From sequence record PQ561394: DNA of 42,423 bases; one strand, written 5' to 3'. Numbering within the stretch: the first letter of the stretch is position 1; the number at the start of each line of letters is the position of its first letter. Under the pieces are notes generated by a model that was not told the DNA's origin, did no database searches, and saw nothing but the letters and a program-made list of their open reading frames with translations. Position numbers and translations under genes: made by a program. Of the stretch, positions 5,279 through 36,013 are shown piece after piece. Source of the stretch: Escherichia phage Ec1-ASingh.

Positions 5279-7711
5279 GTGGATTTACTTGCAGAGCAGA
5301 TTCGACTTGAAGAAGAAGCGCGAGCCAGACACCGCGAGGGCTGGCTGGATAATATCAAAGAGGCGATGGCCAGTGGCCGCGCCGGGTCGGTGCCGTTGCT
5401 CCAGCGTATGATGGTTGAGGCTTATCCTCTGGTCGAAGCTGCGATGCAAGAAACCCTGAGCGAAACGACCCGTGGGTATGGTGCGCAGTACCGGACGTAC
5501 ATGCGTGAGATTGGCACCAAAGCGTGTGCCTCTCTCGCACTGAGCATGGCGGTGTCCGGTGCTGCGTCGGAGCAGGCGGTACTGAGTCTGCTCAAGAGCA
5601 TGGGCAAGGCACTGATGGCTGAGGTGGTGTATCTCCGGGCGAAGCAGACCGGGCCACAGCAGGCGGCGTACATGGAGCGCGTTAAGCAAGACGTGAAGAA
5701 GTCTCGCTCGAAGTCAGCGAACCACGTCTACAATAAAGCGCGTGCGTCGGCGGCGAACGTTGGGGTAGAGATTGATGTGCTGCCGCAGCGTGCGCTGATT
5801 ACCATCGGCAAGCTGATGATGAAGTGCGTCGAGCCAACTGGTCTGGTGTCCACGATTCGCGTCGGCGGCAACCAGCGCCAGCGCGGTACGGCACACTTCG
5901 CCCTGCATGAAGATGTGCTGGCTACGATGAACGACTGGCTGGACATGCCGCGTGCTGATGGCATGTGCTGCCCACCGCTGATTATCCCACCGAAGCAGAT
6001 TGCCCCGAACGGTCGCAGCGGCATGTGGCATTCCGATGGGCAGGCAGCGATGTACCGGGTCATGAGTCGCATGAACCACAAAGGGTATCGTGCATTGAAC
6101 GTTGACCCGACCCCCGTTATAGAGCCGTGTATGATGCTCAGCAGCGTTCCGTACCGAGTTAACCCAATGGTACTGGAGTTCCTGCGAACGAACCGTACAG
6201 GCGTTATGGGGCTGCCTGTGCCACCTCGTGAGCCTACACTTCCGTTCACCATCCCCGCTGGTGTGAGCTTTGCACAGTACATCAGCAAGTTCCCACCAGA
6301 GATGCAGCAGCAGATGGATGCCGAAGCTCATGAGTACAAGGTGAAGACTCGCTTGTATTACAATGAGTTGCGTAAGTTCACGTCGCAGATGCTGGCGTTG
6401 AATGGTGCAGTCAAAGAGGCAGAAAGGTATGCGCAGTACGATAGGATTTATCTCCCGACTTACGCCGATACGCGGGGCCGAATTTATTATTCTTCGACCC
6501 TTAACCCTCAGTCTATCGACGCAGTGCGAGCGCTGCTTGAACTTGCGGAACCAGTGGCTCTCGGAACTGAGGGGCTGTTCTGGCTCAAGGTTCATGTTGC
6601 GAATTGTTTCGGCTACGACGCAACAGACTTCGACGACCGGGCGGCGTGGACGGACAAGACACTCCCCCGACTACGTGAGGCGTGCCGTCTTCCAGAGGCA
6701 TTTGATTCGTTCTGGTCAGAAGCCGATAGCCCTATCAGCGCGTGGGCTGCCTCTGTTGAACTCATTCGCGCTATCGACTCAGGAAGTCCTGAGACTTATC
6801 CCTGCCGAGTGGTTACGCAATGGGACGCTACCTGTTCAGGATTACAGCACCTCAGTGCGATGCTACGAGATGAAGTTGGCGGTGCTGCTGTCAATCTTAT
6901 CAATAGCGTGGGAAGAAAAGCAGACATATATCTCAAGACGGCAGCAGCGGCGATGCAGGCTCTTGAAGATAGTGAAGCGCAGTCACCGACGCAGATGGGT
7001 ACGTGGCTTGTTTCAATCGGTATTGTCCGGGCGATGGCTAAGAAGCCAGTGATGACCTACGTGTACGGGGCAACCCGGCACGGTATGGTGGACTACTACT
7101 GCCTGTATCTACGAGAGAACCGGGTCAAGCTGCCGGACGGCAAGAGCCTGCTGGAGTGTGCGCAGTTCATCGCAGAGTTCATGTGGAATGCAATCCCTCG
7201 CGTTGTGCCGAAGGCGGCAGAGCTGATGGCATGGTTGCAGGCTATCGCGGTTGAAGCGGCAGCCAACGGCGAGTACGTGGAAATCATCGCACCGTCAGGG
7301 TTGCGGGTGGTTAATCTGTATCAAGCCAGCAAGGAGACGATGCTCAACAACATCAACCTCATGGGTATCCACAGCATTAAGCTGCGCGAGTATCTGGACA
7401 AGCCGGACGGCAGGAAGTGTGCCGCTGCGATTGCTCCGAATTTCGTACACGCCATGGATGCCAGCCACATGATGAAGGTGTTGTGGGAGATGTGGAATAA
7501 CGGGGTGTACATGGTGTCCATCCACGATTCGTTCGGGGTGGCGGCTGCACATGCCGGGTTACTCCACAAGGTCATTCGTGAAAAGTTCGTACAGATGTAT
7601 GAGCAACATGACCCAATTCAACAACTTGCTGTACGATACAATGCTGTTGCACCTGAACGGGGCAATCTGGATATCCAGCTTGTGAAACAATCAAGCAAGT
7701 TTTTCTGCTGA
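5279..7711 (+). CDS. single-subunit DNA-dependent RNA polymerase (T7-like)
   Basis: 810 aa; [26 protein letters not shown] matches T7 RNAP catalytic motif ([20 protein letters not shown]); HDSFG motif C present; GTG start after AAGGAG. Confidence 0.95.
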   Translation: [810 protein letters not shown]

Positions 7712-7739: not shown

Positions 7740-7760
7740 ATGAAAGTGTCTATAGTGATA
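7740..7760 (+). promoter_or_regulatory. conserved motif ATGAAAGTGTCTATAGTGATA (candidate phage-RNAP promoter for late genes)
   Basis: Located in the RNAP-structural intergenic region; followed by palindrome GTGATAGATATCAC; recurs at 8009, 35978 and inverted at 29428. Confidence 0.4.
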
Positions 7761-8008: not shown

Positions 8009-8428
8009 ATGAAAGTGTCTACTATGGGAAATACATCACACACGACGATGCCACTCGACATTCGCCGTGCTGTGGCCGAAGGCATTCAAGCTGAGCGGCC
8101 ATGGTCAGACCTATCTCCCGATGTGATTGTTGACAGCATGTACGAGGCCACCGCCTCCGGTTGCGTTGACGTTTACATCACTGCCGATGACGGCAGCCTC
8201 ATGGCTGTCGCTCACATCGGCAGGTTATTCGATATTCATGTGGGCGAGATGGTGGTCGTTATGGCCTCATACGTCTGGCCCCAGTACAGAAACCGTGGAG
8301 TGATGCGTGCCATCCTCCGTGTACTCAAAGACGTGGCCCGTTCAGCGGGTGTGCGTTGGTGCGGTTACTCCCATATGGTGCGGCCTTACGTTCAGGAGTA
8401 CCGCTTCATTGATTTGGAGAAACCGTAA
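8009..8428 (+). CDS. GNAT-like N-acetyltransferase (putative)
   Basis: 139 aa; segment VWPQYRNRGVMRAILRVLKDVARSAG resembles GNAT motif A (acetyl-CoA binding); start overlaps conserved ATGAAAGTGTCTA motif so true start may be ATG 8024. Confidence 0.45.
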   Translation: MKVSTMGNTSHTTMPLDIRRAVAEGIQAERPWSDLSPDVIVDSMYEATASGCVDVYITADDGSLMAVAHIGRLFDIHVGEMVVVMASYVWPQYRNRGVMRAILRVLKDVARSAGVRWCGYSHMVRPYVQEYRFIDLEKP

Positions 8429-29040: not shown

Positions 29041-29400
29041 CTCGTGCGTGTCGCGTTCCATCGTCTGCCGTGTGGCGTGCTGTGCGCTGTCCTGCTGGCT
29101 GTGCTGTGCGGTGCTGTCCTATGGGGACGCTCTGCGCTGGCTGTGCTGTGCTGTGTGGTGCGCGTGGTCGTGCGGGTATCTGTCTCTTTTCGTCGTGCGG
29201 CGTGGTGCTGTGTGGTGGTGTGGTGGCGGTGGTGCTGCCGTGGTGCTGTCCTGTCTGCTGGTCTACTCTCTGCGCCGCCAGCTCTGCGCGTCGTGCTCTG
29301 CTACCTGCTGTTACTGTCCTACTGCGTTCACTGTCTGCCGCCTGTCATCCTGTCGGATTCCATCCGTTGACGTTCCGCGCTCGCTTGTTTCGGCTGCGCC
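29041..29400. other. adenine-depleted low-complexity tract (putative terminal-repeat / genome-end region)
   Basis: About 14 A in 360 nt on + strand (~4%), G/T/C-rich with CTG/GTG/GCG iterations; ORFs called here are composition artefacts. Confidence 0.6.
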
Positions 29401-29570
29401 GCGCTCGCTCTGCGTATCTAGCGATACTATATCACTATAGACACTTTCATAATTATCTATTGATATCAGTAACTTATGACCTATCTGATAACGGTATTCT
29501 ATCCAGTGTTGTGATTATCTAATCAAACTTTAATCCTAATGATTACAGTAACTTATCACTTTTCTTGAAA
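29401..29570. other. AT-rich block with GATA-type palindromes and T7-like CACTATAG core
   Basis: TATCACTATAGACACTTTCAT at 29428-29449; TGATATCA and related palindromes at 29454-29500. Confidence 0.5.
29438..29450 (-). promoter_or_regulatory. inverted copy of conserved ATGAAAGTGTCTA motif (candidate phage-RNAP promoter element)
   Basis: Reverse complement of 29428-29448 is identical to 7740-7760 (21/21). Confidence 0.4.
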
Positions 29571-29577
29571 ATAATAC

Positions 29578-29608
29578 TTGCAAACTGTTTTGGTTATGTG
29601 CTGTAATT
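29578..29608 (+). promoter_or_regulatory. sigma70-like early promoter P1 (weaker)
   Basis: TTGCAA ... TGcTGTAAT with 19-bp spacer; extended -10 TG present. Confidence 0.35.
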
Positions 29609-29767
29609 CATCACGTCGAAAGGCACTAGCCAAGTAGACAGTTTAACGCGGTTGTGTCGCAACATGGGCATGACGGGGCATAAGTCCGATATACTGTGCA
29701 GCCAAACAGACGGCATGAGTGACAAGCCAACCGCATTAAACATTGCTCTTTAACAATCTGGAGTGTA

Positions 29768-29796
29768 TTGACAAGGCAAGCTCACTATGCTGTAAT
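29768..29796 (+). promoter_or_regulatory. sigma70-like early promoter P2
   Basis: TTGACA - 17 bp - TGTAAT with extended TG (TGcTGTAAT). Confidence 0.55.
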
Positions 29797-29905
29797 GCTT
29801 CCACGTCAGCCAGACAAGCCGAATAGTGATGGATAAACACGTTAACACCCGCGCAGGCTAACTGGTACGGTTTAATTAACTCTGAATGGGCGCTGATTAA
29901 ATCGG

Positions 29906-29934
29906 TTGACAGGATGAAACGAGTATGCTGTAAT
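29906..29934 (+). promoter_or_regulatory. sigma70-like early promoter P3
   Basis: TTGACA - 17 bp - TGTAAT with extended TG (TGcTGTAAT). Confidence 0.55.
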
Positions 29935-29985
29935 ACGCTCCAGATTGACAGGGCAGCAAGCCAGTCAGTCAGAAGTAAAAAGTAG

Positions 29986-30014
29986 TTGACAAGCTGAATA
30001 CACTGTGTTGTAAT
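29986..30014 (+). promoter_or_regulatory. sigma70-like early promoter P4
   Basis: TTGACA - 17 bp - TGTAAT with upstream TG (TGtTGTAAT). Confidence 0.55.
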
Positions 30015-30487
30015 CAGCACCGAGTTGAAAGGTTGCAAAACAACCTGCTCTGAGTGAACGTAAACAGGCCACGTAGTGTCTCGGCCTCATGGGTATCCGG
30101 CGCAGCTAGGAACTGGTGAGGGCACCGCCGAAAGGCAATAGGGGTAGCGCCCGGTGCAAGGTAACAGAGAAGCGCGATAGACGCAGCGCAGTATCAGCAC
30201 AATACCGAACGTCTTATAAGCATTGTAGACAGTAGGGGACGTAGCAAAACACACTCGACTTTGAGCTGGCGCGTAGCAGGTTGCGCAGGGTATGACTGAG
30301 TGTTGAGCGGAGTCGCTGAAAGATACTTAAACCCGATGATATATGCCGGGTCATGCGAAATGGGCGGGGCGATTTTTCAGGGTAGTGAATCCGACAAGCC
30401 AATCAATGCCACTGAGTGCAGACTGTACGGCGCGTCACAATGGGTTCACTATCCACCTGAAAATAGCCAACAACTGGAGAAATAACT

Positions 30488-30877
30488 ATGTACCGTATCT
30501 ATGCAAGCGCATACCGCCAGAACAATGCTGAGTGTGTTAATCTGGCGCTTCATTGCAAGGCACTGCGAACGGTGCAGGATATGTTCGGAGTGATTCCGGT
30601 CACACTGACAGGCAAGTTCGACAATGCGTATGAGTTAAGCATGGTCTTTCCTGTCGATGGAATCTACGAAATCAGACAGGCTGTTAAGCTGTTCTGTAAA
30701 GCCTTTGAACAGGACTGCATCATGGTAGTGACCGATGACAATGATGCAATCTTCATGGATTCACCGTATCCGGGCAAGCCTGCTGGCAAGCTGGTCAGCA
30801 AAACAGGCGAGCAGATGGAAGCCGGGCAGCATACCGCTTGGACTTATGACGGTGAACTGTTTTGGGTAGTGGAGTAA
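30488..30877 (+). CDS. early hypothetical protein (first early gene)
   Basis: 129 aa; GGAGAAA RBS; first ORF downstream of the promoter cluster. Confidence 0.6.
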   Translation: MYRIYASAYRQNNAECVNLALHCKALRTVQDMFGVIPVTLTGKFDNAYELSMVFPVDGIYEIRQAVKLFCKAFEQDCIMVVTDDNDAIFMDSPYPGKPAGKLVSKTGEQMEAGQHTAWTYDGELFWVVE

Positions 30878-30883
30878 GGGGGC

Positions 30884-30964
30884 ATGACTATGTTCACTGC
30901 ACTGTGTGTTATAGCAGCGGCCTGCTGGGTCATTGACCAGCGCCTGAGCCGTCGCCGTGGCTGA
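30884..30964 (+). CDS. possible 26-aa hydrophobic peptide
   Basis: MTMFTALCVIAAACWVIDQRLSRRRG; GGAG/GGGGG upstream; below the ORF-track length cutoff; low confidence. Confidence 0.25.
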   Translation: MTMFTALCVIAAACWVIDQRLSRRRG

Positions 30965-30970
30965 TAGCCT

Positions 30971-30992
30971 ATAGCGTCTTGCGAGGCGCTAT
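30971..30992 (+). promoter_or_regulatory. intergenic stem-loop
   Basis: ATAGCG-tcttgcgagg-CGCTAT. Confidence 0.35.
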
Positions 30993-31025: not shown

Positions 31026-31553
31026 ATGCAATTCAAATACACTAGCTTCAAAAACGTTGTCCAGCTCGACAAGGCTATCGCTGAGTCAATCAGCAGCGCT
31101 AAAACACTGCGTGAAGGTATTCAGGACGTGGCTGTAGGCATTCTGATGCACGCTTACAAACACGGTGACTACACTCGTGCTGAGCATTACGTTAATGGAC
31201 TGGGAACAGGCGTTCGCCAGAAAGCTCTGGTTGACTGGTTCGTCCAGTTCGGCGGCCTGACCATCGGTACTCGCAGCAACGGCAACGTTGGCTTCGTGGG
31301 CTGGAAAGGCGCTGAGCACATCAAAGCTAACTTTGACAAGGCCAAAGAGACTGGCTGGTGGACTTGCAAGCCTGAATCTGCGTTTGAAGGATTCGACCTG
31401 CAAGCTGCGCTCGAAAAGCTGATTGTCAAAGCTGAGAAGGCGCTGAACAAGGCGAACGAACTGCGTCACGAAGGCAAGGACGAAGACGCGAACAAGGTCG
31501 TAGTGCCTCAGAACGTGCTCGACCTGCTGCGCAAGGCTAAACAAGCTGCGTGA
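31026..31553 (+). CDS. early hypothetical protein
   Basis: 175 aa from ATG 31026 (AAGGGG RBS); ORF-track N-terminal extension probably not translated. Confidence 0.6.
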   Translation: MQFKYTSFKNVVQLDKAIAESISSAKTLREGIQDVAVGILMHAYKHGDYTRAEHYVNGLGTGVRQKALVDWFVQFGGLTIGTRSNGNVGFVGWKGAEHIKANFDKAKETGWWTCKPESAFEGFDLQAALEKLIVKAEKALNKANELRHEGKDEDANKVVVPQNVLDLLRKAKQAA

Positions 31554-31560
31554 TTACTGA

Positions 31561-31583
31561 CAGGCCATTCACTGAGTGGCCTG
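31561..31583 (+). promoter_or_regulatory. intergenic stem-loop (UUC-nnn-GAG triloop family)
   Basis: CAGGCCA-TTC-act-GAG-TGGCCTG. Confidence 0.5.
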
Positions 31584-31618
31584 AATTGTAACCACACATC
31601 AACCTCAAGGGGTATAGC

Positions 31619-31897
31619 ATGACTTTTAAAGCTGTTGACACTCGCATCAAACCGAAAGCTGGTTCCGTTCCTGCCATTATCATGGAAGCCCAGCCTACTG
31701 GCCGCATCGTCGCCACGATTGACGACACTGGCCGCCTGAATATTCAGGAAGGCGCGGAGCAACTGCCGCACTTCAAGCAAAGCCGTGAACTGCTGGAAGA
31801 ATCCGGCGACTTCCTCTGGCTGCTGGATGATGACAACGACACGCCGTACGATGGCACGGTGCGCTGGGGTCGTCAGGAAGATTTCGAAGTGGCGTAA
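31619..31897 (+). CDS. small acidic early protein
   Basis: 92 aa; AAGGGG RBS; acidic C-terminus. Confidence 0.6.
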   Translation: MTFKAVDTRIKPKAGSVPAIIMEAQPTGRIVATIDDTGRLNIQEGAEQLPHFKQSRELLEESGDFLWLLDDDNDTPYDGTVRWGRQEDFEVA

Positions 31898-31911
31898 GCC
31901 GGGATTGACTC

Positions 31912-31950
31912 AAGCCAGTGTCAAGGCGCTGGCTTTATGGCAATTCTGCC
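31912..31950 (+). promoter_or_regulatory. cassette leader 1: hairpin plus GGCAATTCTGCC box
   Basis: AAGCCAG-tgtcaaggcg-CTGGCTT followed by tatGGCAATTCTGCC, then AGGAG and ATG 31973. Confidence 0.5.
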
Positions 31951-31972
31951 CCAACCATTTAGGAGCTTCACC

Positions 31973-32254
31973 ATGTCTATCAAAACTGTAACTGCTTTCA
32001 TCACCAAACGTGACGGCGAACTGTATGGCTTCGCTGTATCTCTGAACGAAGGCCAGTACCTGCACCACGTCCGTGAAGACGGCGAACCGACTGACAACGC
32101 TGGCATTCTGGAAACGCTGGCTGGTATCCCGCTGCCGCATGAGTTCATCATCATGCTCGCTGAGCAGGACGAAGACGAGCTGAAAGCGCGTCACGGTAGC
32201 GGCCTGACGCTGGAAGAAATCGGCACCTTCGAAGCCGAGGTTGACGACGAGTAA
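31973..32254 (+). CDS. small acidic early protein (cassette 1)
   Basis: 93 aa, strongly acidic (about 21 D/E versus 6 K/R); AGGAG RBS. Confidence 0.6.
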   Translation: MSIKTVTAFITKRDGELYGFAVSLNEGQYLHHVREDGEPTDNAGILETLAGIPLPHEFIIMLAEQDEDELKARHGSGLTLEEIGTFEAEVDDE

Positions 32255-32265
32255 GCGTTGTCCTG

Positions 32266-32303
32266 CTGCGCCTTCAACGAGGGCGCAGCGTGGCAATAAT
32301 GCC
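32266..32303 (+). promoter_or_regulatory. cassette leader 2: hairpin plus GGCAATAATGCC box
   Basis: CTGCGCC-TTC-aac-GAG-GGCGCAG followed by cgtGGCAATAATGCC, then GAGGG and ATG 32326. Confidence 0.5.
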
Positions 32304-32325
32304 TTACTCAATCGAGGGTTTTACT

Positions 32326-32667
32326 ATGACTATCAAACTGGTTCTGCTGTCCAACATCGCTGCCTCTGCTTTCGGCGCAGGCGTTCCGGCTGACGCTATC
32401 ACCAGCGAGTGGGTTGGCTTCACTCAGGACGACGAGCGTTACCTGATTGCAGGCCGCAACCGCGACGGCGATTCGCCTGACGAAATCGTGGCGCACTTCG
32501 ATAACGACACCAGCTTCGCAGAGTTCCGCGAGTCTGGCTTCCCGCTGGAACTGTTCGCTCTCATGGGCGGCCACTCCTACATCGACACCGAAACACTGGG
32601 TGAAGGTGTGGTTATCAACGTGCTCAAAGAGTACGACGCGGAAGACGATATCGACTTCGACGCGTGA
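32326..32667 (+). CDS. small acidic early protein (cassette 2)
   Basis: 113 aa; acidic C-terminus ...EYDAEDDIDFDA. Confidence 0.6.
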   Translation: MTIKLVLLSNIAASAFGAGVPADAITSEWVGFTQDDERYLIAGRNRDGDSPDEIVAHFDNDTSFAEFRESGFPLELFALMGGHSYIDTETLGEGVVINVLKEYDAEDDIDFDA

Positions 32668-32673
32668 TGCCTT

Positions 32674-32711
32674 GTTGCCTCCTTGCGAGGGGGCAATGCG
32701 GCAATCATGCC
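32674..32711 (+). promoter_or_regulatory. cassette leader 3: hairpin plus GGCAATCATGCC box
   Basis: TTGCCTCC-ttgcga-GGGGGCAA followed by tgcGGCAATCATGCC, then GAGGA and ATG 32733. Confidence 0.5.
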
Positions 32712-32732
32712 TTAACCTATCGAGGATTTATT

Positions 32733-33008
32733 ATGTCCACTATCAATGTGTTTGCACTGAACAACGGCGGTCTGGCTTTCATCGTAGGCGAGACCAAAGA
32801 TAACGCACCGTCGCTGGGCGTGCAGCCGAAGCCGGACGCAAGCCACGATGAAGTAATCGGTGAAGTGCGCGAGGCGCTGGAAGACCTCGGCGGTATGCTG
32901 ATTGCCATTCAGGGTGGCAAGCTCTCCGTCGAGAAGCTGAACGAACTGGAGCCGCGCTTCATCACCAGCTTCGAAGCCGACAACGTAGACGCGGCTGACT
33001 TCGAGTAA
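32733..33008 (+). CDS. small acidic early protein (cassette 3)
   Basis: 91 aa; acidic C-terminus ...EADNVDAADFE. Confidence 0.6.
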   Translation: MSTINVFALNNGGLAFIVGETKDNAPSLGVQPKPDASHDEVIGEVREALEDLGGMLIAIQGGKLSVEKLNELEPRFITSFEADNVDAADFE

Positions 33009-33036
33009 CCCACAACCAACAACAGGAGTACAAAGC

Positions 33037-33267
33037 ATGGCTAAGTTTGAACTGGTACGCTTCATCGACCCGAACGATGGCGAAGTAACCTTCGCACAGT
33101 TTGCCAATGACCGCGAGCTGGTCGCCATCTACAACACTGAGCGCACGGCGCGGCGCTGGTTCAAGGAAGACGAGGACATGGACAGCATTGAAGATGCGCT
33201 GGCTATGCCGGGCTACGCTGAGGCTGTCGAGGCAGCACTGAAAGGCGAAGTCGTAGCGACTGCGTGA
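33037..33267 (+). CDS. small acidic early protein
   Basis: 76 aa; AGGAG RBS; lacks the hairpin/box leader. Confidence 0.55.
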   Translation: MAKFELVRFIDPNDGEVTFAQFANDRELVAIYNTERTARRWFKEDEDMDSIEDALAMPGYAEAVEAALKGEVVATA

Positions 33268-33274
33268 TTTCTGT

Positions 33275-33313
33275 CAGCCCATCCATAGCGGTGGGCTGTA
33301 GGGCAATCATGCC
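33275..33313 (+). promoter_or_regulatory. cassette leader 4: hairpin plus GGCAATCATGCC box
   Basis: CAGCCCA-tccatagcgg-TGGGCTG followed by tagGGCAATCATGCC, then GAGGG and ATG 33336. Confidence 0.5.
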
Positions 33314-33335
33314 ACAACTAACTGAGGGTTTTACC

Positions 33336-33620
33336 ATGGCTAAAGTAACTGCATACTACTCCGCTTCTGAAAAAGATATCGTTGCAATCGTGGGCGATGG
33401 CTTCGAAGAAGGCAACATGGCGCTGTGTATCTCCGGCTGCAAAGACGTACCGGAACTGAACACGGTTGAAGATGCGAAGGCTGCGCTGCCGTCGCTGGAA
33501 TCTGACATCAGCCGCATGGGTGAGCTGGCGTTCCTGCTGAACGGCGGCACCTTGAATGAGGGCGCGGCTGTGAACATGCCTGCCAAGGGCTACGAAGCGA
33601 TTGGTAGCTTCGAGGTCTAA
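33336..33620 (+). CDS. small acidic early protein (cassette 4)
   Basis: 94 aa; GAGGG RBS. Confidence 0.6.
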   Translation: MAKVTAYYSASEKDIVAIVGDGFEEGNMALCISGCKDVPELNTVEDAKAALPSLESDISRMGELAFLLNGGTLNEGAAVNMPAKGYEAIGSFEV

Positions 33621-34480: not shown

Positions 34481-34487
34481 TAAGCTA

Positions 34488-34509
34488 CAGCCTCTGCTTG
34501 CGGGGGCTG
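34488..34509 (+). promoter_or_regulatory. intergenic stem-loop
   Basis: CAGCCTC-tgcttgc-GGGGGCTG (one G-U wobble); stem and loop similar to the 32674 hairpin. Confidence 0.4.
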
Positions 34510-34536
34510 TGTCATTATCAAACGAGCGAGGTCACT

Positions 34537-34691: not shown

Positions 34692-34976
34692 ATGGTACTG
34701 GCATCTGAATCACTTATCGAACAAGCTGGCGCAATTCGTGAGGCTGAGCATCTGCGTGGGGTAGCCGCAACGCTCGGTCATTGTGCTGGTAACGGCGGCC
34801 TGCGTGGGCACTCGGTCGGCGGCGTATTCCCCTGCGTAATTTTCTCGCGGGGCAACCCACATGAACACCTCGACTGGTGCTTCCTCGCACCGAACGGCGA
34901 CGAGTTCGACGGCTTCATCAGTTATGAAGATGCGTATGCAGCCGCGCAACAATGGCTGGAAGAAAGAGAGGTGTGA
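34692..34976 (+). CDS. early hypothetical protein
   Basis: 94 aa; GGGGGT RBS. Confidence 0.55.
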   Translation: MVLASESLIEQAGAIREAEHLRGVAATLGHCAGNGGLRGHSVGGVFPCVIFSRGNPHEHLDWCFLAPNGDEFDGFISYEDAYAAAQQWLEEREV

Positions 34977-35941: not shown

Positions 35942-35977
35942 TCATCTACTCATGCCTGTTATTATTTAGCAGGCATT

Positions 35978-35990
35978 ATGAAGGTGTCTA
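35978..35990 (+). promoter_or_regulatory. conserved motif ATGAAGGTGTCTA (third + strand copy), preceded by hairpin
   Basis: Follows hairpin ATGCCTG-ttattatttag-CAGGCAT (35952-35976); 23 nt upstream of the 36014 start codon. Confidence 0.35.
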
Positions 35991-36013
35991 TATTGGCCAA
36001 CGTGAGGTGAACT

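Follow-up and report, generated by a model that had tools for sequence, protein, structure and literature searches.

A repeated hairpin-and-box leader before small acidic early genes of Escherichia phage Ec1-ASingh, a candidate RNA element at junctions of gene exchange

The early gene array

We have analysed the 42,423-nucleotide sequence of Escherichia phage Ec1-ASingh (record PQ561394; this whole stretch is called the window below), and in particular an array in its early region in which four genes for small acidic proteins are each preceded by a leader made of a GC-rich hairpin and a 12-nt box, GGCAATNNTGCC. The window and its relatives place the phage in the genus Bonnellvirus of the Autographiviridae, with a phiKMV-type layout. 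An earlier note on this DNA had described four consecutive cassettes, and the open reading frames (ORFs) are as it gave them, starting at 31973, 32326, 32733 and 33336, coding for acidic proteins of 91-113 aa and beginning with MSIKTV, MTIKLV, MSTINV and MAKVTA. They are not strictly consecutive, as a fifth acidic gene lies between the third and the fourth. The coordinates of the array and of the other features discussed are collected in Table 1.

The shared leader is real. Over the whole window the box has exactly four matches, all on the + strand (31939, 32292, 32700 and 33302) and each between a hairpin and a small acidic ORF, against an expectation of 0.08 from dinucleotide shuffles, and none of 100 shuffles reached four, so that the enrichment over shuffled sequence holds in the window. 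In these four leaders the box lies 3-4 nt 3' of the hairpin and 21-22 nt 5' of the ATG, and is followed by a C/A-rich stretch of ~10 nt, a GAGG-type Shine-Dalgarno (SD) sequence and the start codon. Some measurements of the earlier note had to be corrected: the upper stems of the hairpins have 9-12 bp (20-21 bp with the box) and not 6-8, and the ~20 nt given from the box to the ribosome-binding site (RBS) are in fact ~10 nt to the SD. The box-to-box intervals, described before as roughly 350-400 bp, are 353, 408 and 602 nt. Leaders 2-4 have ~60-80% identity across 44 nt (repeat family D2). Not every hairpin comes with a box: the first one of the region (31561-31583) has none, and the same is true of another at 34487-34510, both being located after stop codons and having an A/U-rich lower stem. 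Further hairpins, at 30972-30991 and 35952-35976, were placed by sequence only.

Table 1. Features of the cassette array and of the surrounding early region (positions in the window).
Feature	Position	Strand	Remarks
Box-less intercistronic hairpin after gp02	31561-31583	+	precedes gene 31619-31897
Leader 1	31899-31950	+	5' arm 31899-31909; upper hairpin 31912-31935; box GGCAATTCTGCC 31939-31950
Cassette gene 1	31973-32254	+	93 aa; net charge -15; SD AGGAG 31961-31965
Leader 2	32255-32303	+	5' arm 32255-32263; upper hairpin 32263-32290; box GGCAATAATGCC 32292-32303
Cassette gene 2	32326-32667	+	113 aa; net charge -18; SD GAGGG 32314-32318
Leader 3	32662-32711	+	5' arm 32662-32671 (GCG + stop TGA + TGCC); upper hairpin 32673-32698 (UGCG loop); box GGCAATCATGCC 32700-32711
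Cassette gene 3	32733-33008	+	91 aa; net charge -11; paralogue of 33336-33620
Interposed small acidic gene	33037-33267	+	76 aa; plain 28-nt spacer, without hairpin or box
Leader 4	33262-33313	+	5' arm 33262-33272 (GCG + stop TGA + TTTCT); upper hairpin 33275-33298; box GGCAATCATGCC 33302-33313
Cassette gene 4	33336-33620	+	94 aa; net charge -9; matches phrog_32287 (function not known)
Putative sigma-70-type promoter P0	29577-29606	+	TTGCAA-N18-TGTAAT; TG at -15/-14; read from the sequence
rrn-type boxA TGCTCTTTAACAA	29744-29756	+	exact 13-nt match to the E. coli rrn antiterminator, between P0 and P1; putative role
Three tandem sigma-70-type early promoters	29768-29796, 29906-29934, 29986-30014	+	TTGACA-N17-TGTAAT; TG at -15/-14; near-consensus, one repeat family
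First early gene, S-adenosylmethionine (SAM) lyase	30488-30877	+	PF23780, E=3e-26
Second early gene, gp02	31026-31553	+	phrog_1448, widespread among phiKMV-like phages
Single-subunit phage RNA polymerase gene	5279-7711	+	PF00940

Folding of the leaders

In the window, the spacers between stop and start codons fold in such a way that the first 8-11 bases of the box pair with sequence 5' of the hairpin, giving 17-21 bp with a small internal loop or bulge. RNAalifold, applied to the orthologous leaders, gave for all four types a consensus two-tier hairpin of 20-21 pairs. The upper stems are GC-rich, frequently with a UNCG-type loop, while in the basal helix the last sense codon and the stop codon of the upstream ORF face the box, which is the 3' strand. 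The upper stems have 4-6 compensatory pairs each, and in the basal helix the compensatory pairs fall at the box positions N7/N8 (UGA-CA, UAA-UA and CU-AG), i.e., a 5' arm GCG-UGA-U comes with a box having CA, GCG-UAA-U with UA and GCGCUAU with AG. In a rare variant of the box, a C at position 9 turns a G.U pair of the basal helix into G-C. All three bases of the stop codon pair with the box in 11 leaders, among them the third and fourth of the window and some in two unrelated viral contigs (L022 and L027, see below). Since the GCG codon pairs with the UGC of the box, several of the upstream proteins end in alanine, and the G.U pairs and UGCG loops found in the stems point to RNA rather than DNA. 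We favour the view that the hairpin-plus-box units are cis-acting RNA elements on a polycistronic early transcript.

Conservation and cassette exchange among bonnellviruses

The 2.7 kb around the array are 100% identical in Enterobacter phage BHUENT7 (an unannotated record) and 75-95% identical in the Escherichia phages megetsur, altidsur, forsur, usur, J8-65 and Lidtsur, as well as in Kosakonia virus Kc261, Cronobacter phage RZ4 and Pantoea phage ROV85, all of them members of Bonnellvirus. Ten relatives have the box in exact form, with two to four copies in nine of them and one in ROV85, and the order is invariant (hairpin, 3-12 nt, box, 21-25 nt, ATG). From phage to phage the stems show changes in pairs, as in CTGCGCC/GGCGCAG versus CTGCATCC/GGGTGCAG, and the sequence from box to SD drifts freely; the box stays exact across genomes that are only 70-80% identical. 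The part of the earlier note that took the leaders for a common regulatory module of early genes is supported; in this T7-family phage they are real and under selection. Melnykvirinae relatives with gp02 have neither the long spacers nor the box.

The genes behind the leaders are not the same from phage to phage. The leader type that precedes gene 1 in the window is found in J8-65 before the homologue of the interposed gene 33037-33267, which there does have a hairpin-box leader, and before still other ORFs in smaasur and Lidtsur. Downstream of gp02 the spacers of the window and of J8-65 and Lidtsur differ by a precise 12-nt indel, the box being inserted in these two phages exactly after AACCAC, at the site of the 31561-31583 hairpin. 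In forsur one cassette gene is cut to 26 codons between two intact leaders. Read from these genome comparisons, the leaders are junctions of gene exchange. Bonnellviruses have been reported to differ chiefly in small hypothetical genes (PMC7552041), with which this picture of leader swapping agrees. We also noticed that J8-65 gp07 (L002 4005-4418) is a fusion, its N-terminal ~43 residues belonging to the gene-2 family and the rest being homologous to the window ORF 34692-34976, which points to a deletion of several cassettes.

The box beyond the genus

By itself the box can fold as a 4-bp mini-hairpin, GGCA[AUNN]UGCC, of the general form NNN-A[AUNN]U-N'N'N'. IMG/VR was scanned twice for two exact boxes separated by 294-355 nt, and the matches comprised bonnellvirus-like contigs, some repeats within coding sequences and at least 12 further viral contig lineages. 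In the latter the box is located 15-25 nt 5' of the start codon of small ORFs, often in several copies. The contigs that carry it have a GC content from 31% to 57%, and the SD is strong in some leaders and absent in others. Among them, L042 is crAss-like (its terminase is 42-44% identical to those of crAss-like phages) and L021 is phi29-like and related to Clostridium phages (64.5% identity between its DNA polymerase and that of CS229P1); L022 and L031 gave no nucleotide match to cultured phages. Outside the genus the box may be preceded by a U-tract terminator, a tRNA-like minihelix, an ordinary hairpin or no structure at all, and the proteins encoded behind it are unrelated and not all acidic.

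Paralogous leaders could be identified by their phage-specific flanks, and the seven double substitutions found in the stem of the mini-hairpin were all compensatory (variants AGCAATTATGCT, CGCAATAGTGCG, GGGAATTGTCCC, GACAATTCTGTC, GCCAATGGTGGC, AGCAATGGTGCT and GACAATGGTGTC); one additional variant, CGTAATAGTGCG, is a G.U change. The AAT of positions 4-6 is constant, and at position 9 T is only rarely replaced by C. Of 126 candidate hairpins with a 4-bp stem and a 4-nt loop in leader position in these contigs, 43 belong to the A[AUNN]U class, the runner-up class having 5. On this evidence the box is a small hairpin in which the stem sequence is free, and the closing pair and half of the loop are fixed.

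Searches for a previous description gave nothing. Rfam had no match at any box or hairpin of the window (E<=10) nor in nine other box-bearing contigs (E<=1), although such a search has low power for a motif of 12 nt. A literal full-text search for the box strings found nothing relevant in the paper library searched, and the motif is not mentioned in the Bonnellvirus papers. No such motif in leader position was found in T7, in Clostridium phage CS229P1 or in the second half of phi14:2.

Two contig groups have peculiarities of their own. In L021 (reverse strand, ~270-700, 1000-1060 and 1420-1470) the boxes come after repeated minihelices with an acceptor-like stem and a GCAGG-TTCAACT-CCTGC T-arm, tRNA-like by eye; ARAGORN calls no tRNA genes beside these boxes. 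In L024 and L025 a block CGCTACGCT(A/C)AGG is found 4-5 nt before every box, just past U-tract terminators, and may be a phage-specific promoter element.

Function of the element

The reading that we prefer is one of processing and stability, in which the elements would punctuate the early transcript into separately stable and separately translated cistrons; arguing mostly by analogy, we give it a probability of about 0.45. A host endonuclease would cut at the two-tier hairpin, as RNase III does at the T7 early sites. The upstream mRNA would keep a protective hairpin at its 3' end, and the downstream one would start at or close to the box mini-hairpin, followed by unstructured, CA-rich leader sequence and then the SD. 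A ribosome terminating at the embedded stop codon would open the basal helix, letting the box flip into the mini-hairpin. The elements would have a second role as portable junctions, at which accessory early genes get swapped, duplicated or deleted, as indicated by leaders that are conserved while the ORFs differ.

Several known systems are useful for comparison. RNase III cleavage in T7 leaves the upstream mRNA with a 3' hairpin. The T7 sites (R0.3, R0.5, R1, R1.1 and R1.3) are also found in the early region of a member of the Autographiviridae, transcribed by the host polymerase from strong tandem promoters, and they are intercistronic, irregular hairpins of ~20 bp, with two helices and an internal loop or bulge, just 5' of the next RBS. 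The leaders described here are located between stop codons and SDs, downstream of the promoters at 29577-30014, and their two tiers, each with compensatory changes, add up to 20-21 pairs. Of the possibilities raised in the earlier note, an RNA-level site of this kind is the one that fits this anatomy best. There are differences, though. The 3' strand of the basal helix is here an invariant 12-mer that can also fold by itself and is found elsewhere without the long hairpin, the upstream stop codon is embedded in the helix, and the T7 genome is without the motif in leader position. The stabilising hairpins at the start of the ompA mRNA and of the T7 gene 10 leader are likewise small and followed by an unstructured region and an SD; however, they have no sequence common to different genes or organisms, while the box keeps its A-AU..U across phyla.

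In their organization the leaders recall the promoter-early stem-loops (PeSLs), mobile regulatory cassettes of T4-type phages (PMC2839356, PMC4122927). In both, a short composite stem-loop motif is repeated before small ORFan genes in a hyperplastic early region, the same motif stands beside different genes in related phages, and indels or replacements map to the motifs. Here this is seen in the leader sharing among the window, J8-65, smaasur and Lidtsur, in the box indel and in the truncation in forsur. However, a PeSL is defined by a strong sigma-70 consensus promoter (-35, -10 and an AT-rich upstream region), and none is found at the four leaders; PeSL stem-loops terminate transcription, and the hairpins here have no U-tracts; and what is conserved in the present leaders is a hairpin of 12 nt whose covariation is of the RNA type. 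By analogy, the element would act most like the T7 early RNase III sites, with cleavage as the prediction, and be organized like the T4 PeSL cassettes.

A number of observations weigh against processing and stability as the explanation. The basal pairing is marginal in single sequences, 5-40 of 200 shuffled flanks doing equally well, and in leader 2 it is ambiguous, the basal helix being one of two competing folds. The contigs were selected for having two exact boxes, which biases the frequencies found among them, although the compensatory variants were not selected for. The structures, the covariation, the conservation and the gene shuffling are there in the sequences; cleavage, stabilisation and a trans-acting partner are argued from T7 RNase III sites and from terminal protective hairpins. 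Moreover, a purely structural 5' hairpin leaves the invariance of A4, A5, U6 and U9 across phyla unexplained, which suggests a binding partner or some other structural requirement. The invariant AATNNT also coincides with the key positions of a -10 element, and in several contigs the box comes after a true U-tract terminator, a situation that would call for a promoter.

These last points lead to the alternatives. One is that the mini-hairpin is an RNA operator, recognised either by a phage protein or by something conserved in the host, with the ribosome platform, S1, RNA polymerase and Nus factors as candidates; such binding would boost or time the translation of the early accessory genes or load an antitermination complex similar to that of nut/boxB. 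We consider this unlikely. It would account for the invariant loop and closing pair beside stem bases that covary freely, and for the fixed location 15-25 nt before start codons in phages of Proteobacteria, Clostridia and Bacteroidetes-type hosts, and the exact rrn boxA that heads the early region is at least a sequence signal for host antitermination. The lambda nut and rrn antitermination leaders also use a small hairpin of the nascent RNA with a sequence-specific loop. However, the box is not adjacent to the boxA, its AUNN loop and 4-bp stem differ from boxB, and it is repeated per gene at a fixed distance from the start codon, when one nut site is normally enough and four copies would be unexpected. 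No candidate binding protein was found, no phage protein is common to the window and the other contigs (loci that are partial), and the motif is unlike boxB, the MS2-type operator and any Rfam family.

Another alternative, which we find more doubtful, is that the box works as DNA, a miniature PeSL in which AATNNT is a -10 element between GC clamps, so that each cassette would have its own weak or factor-dependent promoter, or a sigma-dependent pause. As read from the sequences, A5, T6 and T9 would be -11A, -10T and -7T, with N7 and N8 at the least conserved positions of a -10. There are -35-like hexamers 15-17 nt away in the AT-rich contigs L055 (TTTACA-N16-AATATT), L042 (TTGACT-N15-AATCAT) and L057 (TTGACC-N16-AATGTT), true U-tract terminators precede the box in L024, L021 and L057, and T4-type PeSLs in which the stem-loop overlaps the -10 box are known (PMC2839356). 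However, the four leaders of the window have no usable -35 (a recurring TTGCGA loop is just 14 nt off) and no TG extension, and their -12 is A. The promoter scan finds none at the leaders, and the -35 scores 15-18 nt 5' of AATNNT are overall at background. A -10 element would also leave unexplained that the pairs 1:12, 2:11 and 3:10 change in a compensatory manner and that N7/N8 covary with the upstream stop codon, and the change of T9 to C, which does occur, would be fatal to it. The scan and the -35 statistics rule out a classical sigma-70 promoter at the window leaders; a promoter or sigma-pause role in some phages is a live rival.

The earlier note had also proposed an operator for a dimeric regulator, of phage or host origin. 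The partial dyad symmetry (GGCA/TGCC) and the four copies within one co-expressed region are what such a site would have, but we now find it very improbable. Conservation is asymmetric, A5/T6 being fixed and N7/N8 free; the half-sites would be of 4 bp and 8 bp apart centre to centre; and they change together within single genomes (GGCA to GACA, AGCA, GGGA or GCCA in L031, L024, L021 and L027), where one reader would be needed, these compensatory changes speaking directly against it. Besides, the phages that share the motif have no detectable regulator in common. Finally, that the leaders have no function of their own and are the relic of a recent tandem duplication, kept uniform through gene conversion, is hardly credible: the paralogy of the proteins from 32733 and 33336 and the ~60-80% identity of leaders 2-4 would fit, but the box has stayed invariant next to flanks and ORFs that are no longer recognisably similar, is exact across 70-80%-identical genomes and recurs in unrelated phages.

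Other identities were discarded. An intrinsic terminator does not fit, as the scan flags none of the four hairpins and the stems are followed by UUUAUGG, CGUGG, UGCGG and UAGGG, without a U-tract. Sigma-54, sigma-28, Fur, IHF and NFI-like sites misfit in spacing or in the variable positions (compared by eye). The crAss-like tripartite middle promoter is also different, the phi14:2 promoters being TTGAC...TAnnTTTG and unlike the box (preprint 10.1101/2020.03.07.982082).

The cassette proteins

The four proteins have a pI of 4.05-4.33. The earlier note took them for paralogues, which stands for one pair. Pairwise BLAST among the window proteins finds no similarity, but those from 32733 and 33336 match profile to profile (84% probability, P=7.5e-6), and with relatives added they join one family, a Lidtsur protein matching both sides, at 1e-9 and 3e-5. 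For the proteins from 31973 and 32326 there are weak profile signals to the others (P 5e-4 to 6e-3). Each family has only 3-4 homologues among 5.8 billion proteins; homologues of gene 1 are confined to bonnellviruses. Of the AlphaFold models only that of gene 2 is usable (predicted local distance difference test score, pLDDT, 72; predicted template modelling score, pTM, 0.69), the gene 3 model being too poor (pLDDT 52), and the order strand-strand-strand-helix...strand of the gene-2 model resembles that of the poor gene-3 model.

DNA mimicry or anti-defence had been suggested from the acidity. Mimics of the Ocr/ArdA type are small, strongly acidic and early, all of which applies to these proteins but is not a specific feature. 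No sequence or fold similarity to them was found with Pfam (no match for any of the four), PHROG (a single match, Table 1) or, using the gene-2 model, Foldseek, which gave no match in PDB at E<=1e-3 and only bonnellvirus orthologues in BFVD. The suggestion relies on the acidity and on the neighbouring SAM lyase gene; from the context (this neighbour and the variable gene content) an anti-defence role is plausible, and homology gives no support to it.

We observed also that the proteins have acidic C-terminal tails with F-E/D, namely TFEAEVDDE, DDIDFDA, SFEADNVDAADFE and GSFEV (32240-32254, 32650-32667, 32975-33008 and 33606-33620), which recall the acidic C-terminal tips of the single-stranded DNA-binding protein SSB and of T7 gp2.5. 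In genes whose stop codon is embedded in the following leader, the final codon is GCG (Ala), which pairs with the box.

Genome context

The 42.4-kb window is a circular permutation of the genome, and its + strand carries all the genes. The early region begins near 29.6 kb, and the cassette array is 2-3.5 kb downstream of the tandem sigma-70 promoters. In genome order the phage RNA polymerase gene comes ~18 kb downstream of these promoters. With this gene order and the known biology of phiKMV-type phages, the array would be transcribed before the phage enzyme exists, most likely by the host RNA polymerase. P0 and the three tandem promoters have in common an unusual -10, TGnTGTAAT, and are analogous to T7 A1-A3.

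The boxA TGCTCTTTAACAA is kept exactly in five related phages (altidsur, forsur, usur, ROV85 and smaasur), which suggests Nus-factor antitermination of at least the P0 transcript and could matter for the read-through of the hairpin array. Just past the last early promoter (30030-30054, + strand) a hairpin of 6 bp, its loop being CAAAA (AGGTTG-CAAAA-CAACCT), comes before GCTCTGAG, by eye an order like boxB-then-boxA. The region 5' of the early promoters, near the presumed genome end, has a G/T-rich, strand-skewed tract with degenerate GTGCTGTG-type repeats (29049-29350, +), and the spacer between the SAM lyase gene and gp02 has a 26-codon hydrophobic/basic mini-ORF (MTMFTALCVIAAACWVIDQRLSRRRG; 30884-30964, +) whose sequence is identical in the spacers of the relatives.

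A different repeated motif, ATGAARGTGTCTATAKTG, is found at 7740-7757 (+), 35978-35995 (+), 8009-8026 (+, 3 mismatches) and 29433-29450 (-). It resembles promoters of the SP6/T7 type and, to judge from this likeness, is probably the promoter of the phage RNA polymerase. The copy at 29433-29450 points leftward, near the genome end, and that at 35978 comes directly after the hairpin 35952-35976. None is near the boxes, which are therefore not promoters for this enzyme.

Implications

The 12-nt hairpin has a real chance of being a cis-element that is new and broadly distributed among phages, and its recurrence in uncultured phages, crAss-like and phi29-like ones included, suggests that it acts in phage gene expression generally. 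A bolder proposal, which we offer as speculation with some chance of being right, is that the box is the first recognised member of a widespread and undescribed class of phage leader RNAs, serving as a tag through which a universally conserved part of the host machinery, be it the ribosome platform, RNA polymerase or a Nus factor, would favour phage early messages, and that the pairing with the upstream stop codon in bonnellviruses gates this tag, the translation of one cassette switching on the next. If this were true, the class would be defined by NNN-A[AUNN]U-N'N'N', 15-25 nt before small early or accessory genes, in phages of Proteobacteria, Firmicutes and Bacteroidetes.

Functions in host takeover and anti-defence are encoded by the early accessory genes of phages, whose expression and exchange are little understood except in T4 and T7. 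The locus described here offers a compact module (a hairpin with an embedded stop codon, a 12-nt mini-hairpin that may be switchable and an SD) in a coliphage-like virus that can be grown on relatives of E. coli K-12. A host partner, if there is one, would be a weak point common to these phages, and the element a useful part for the design of synthetic operons.

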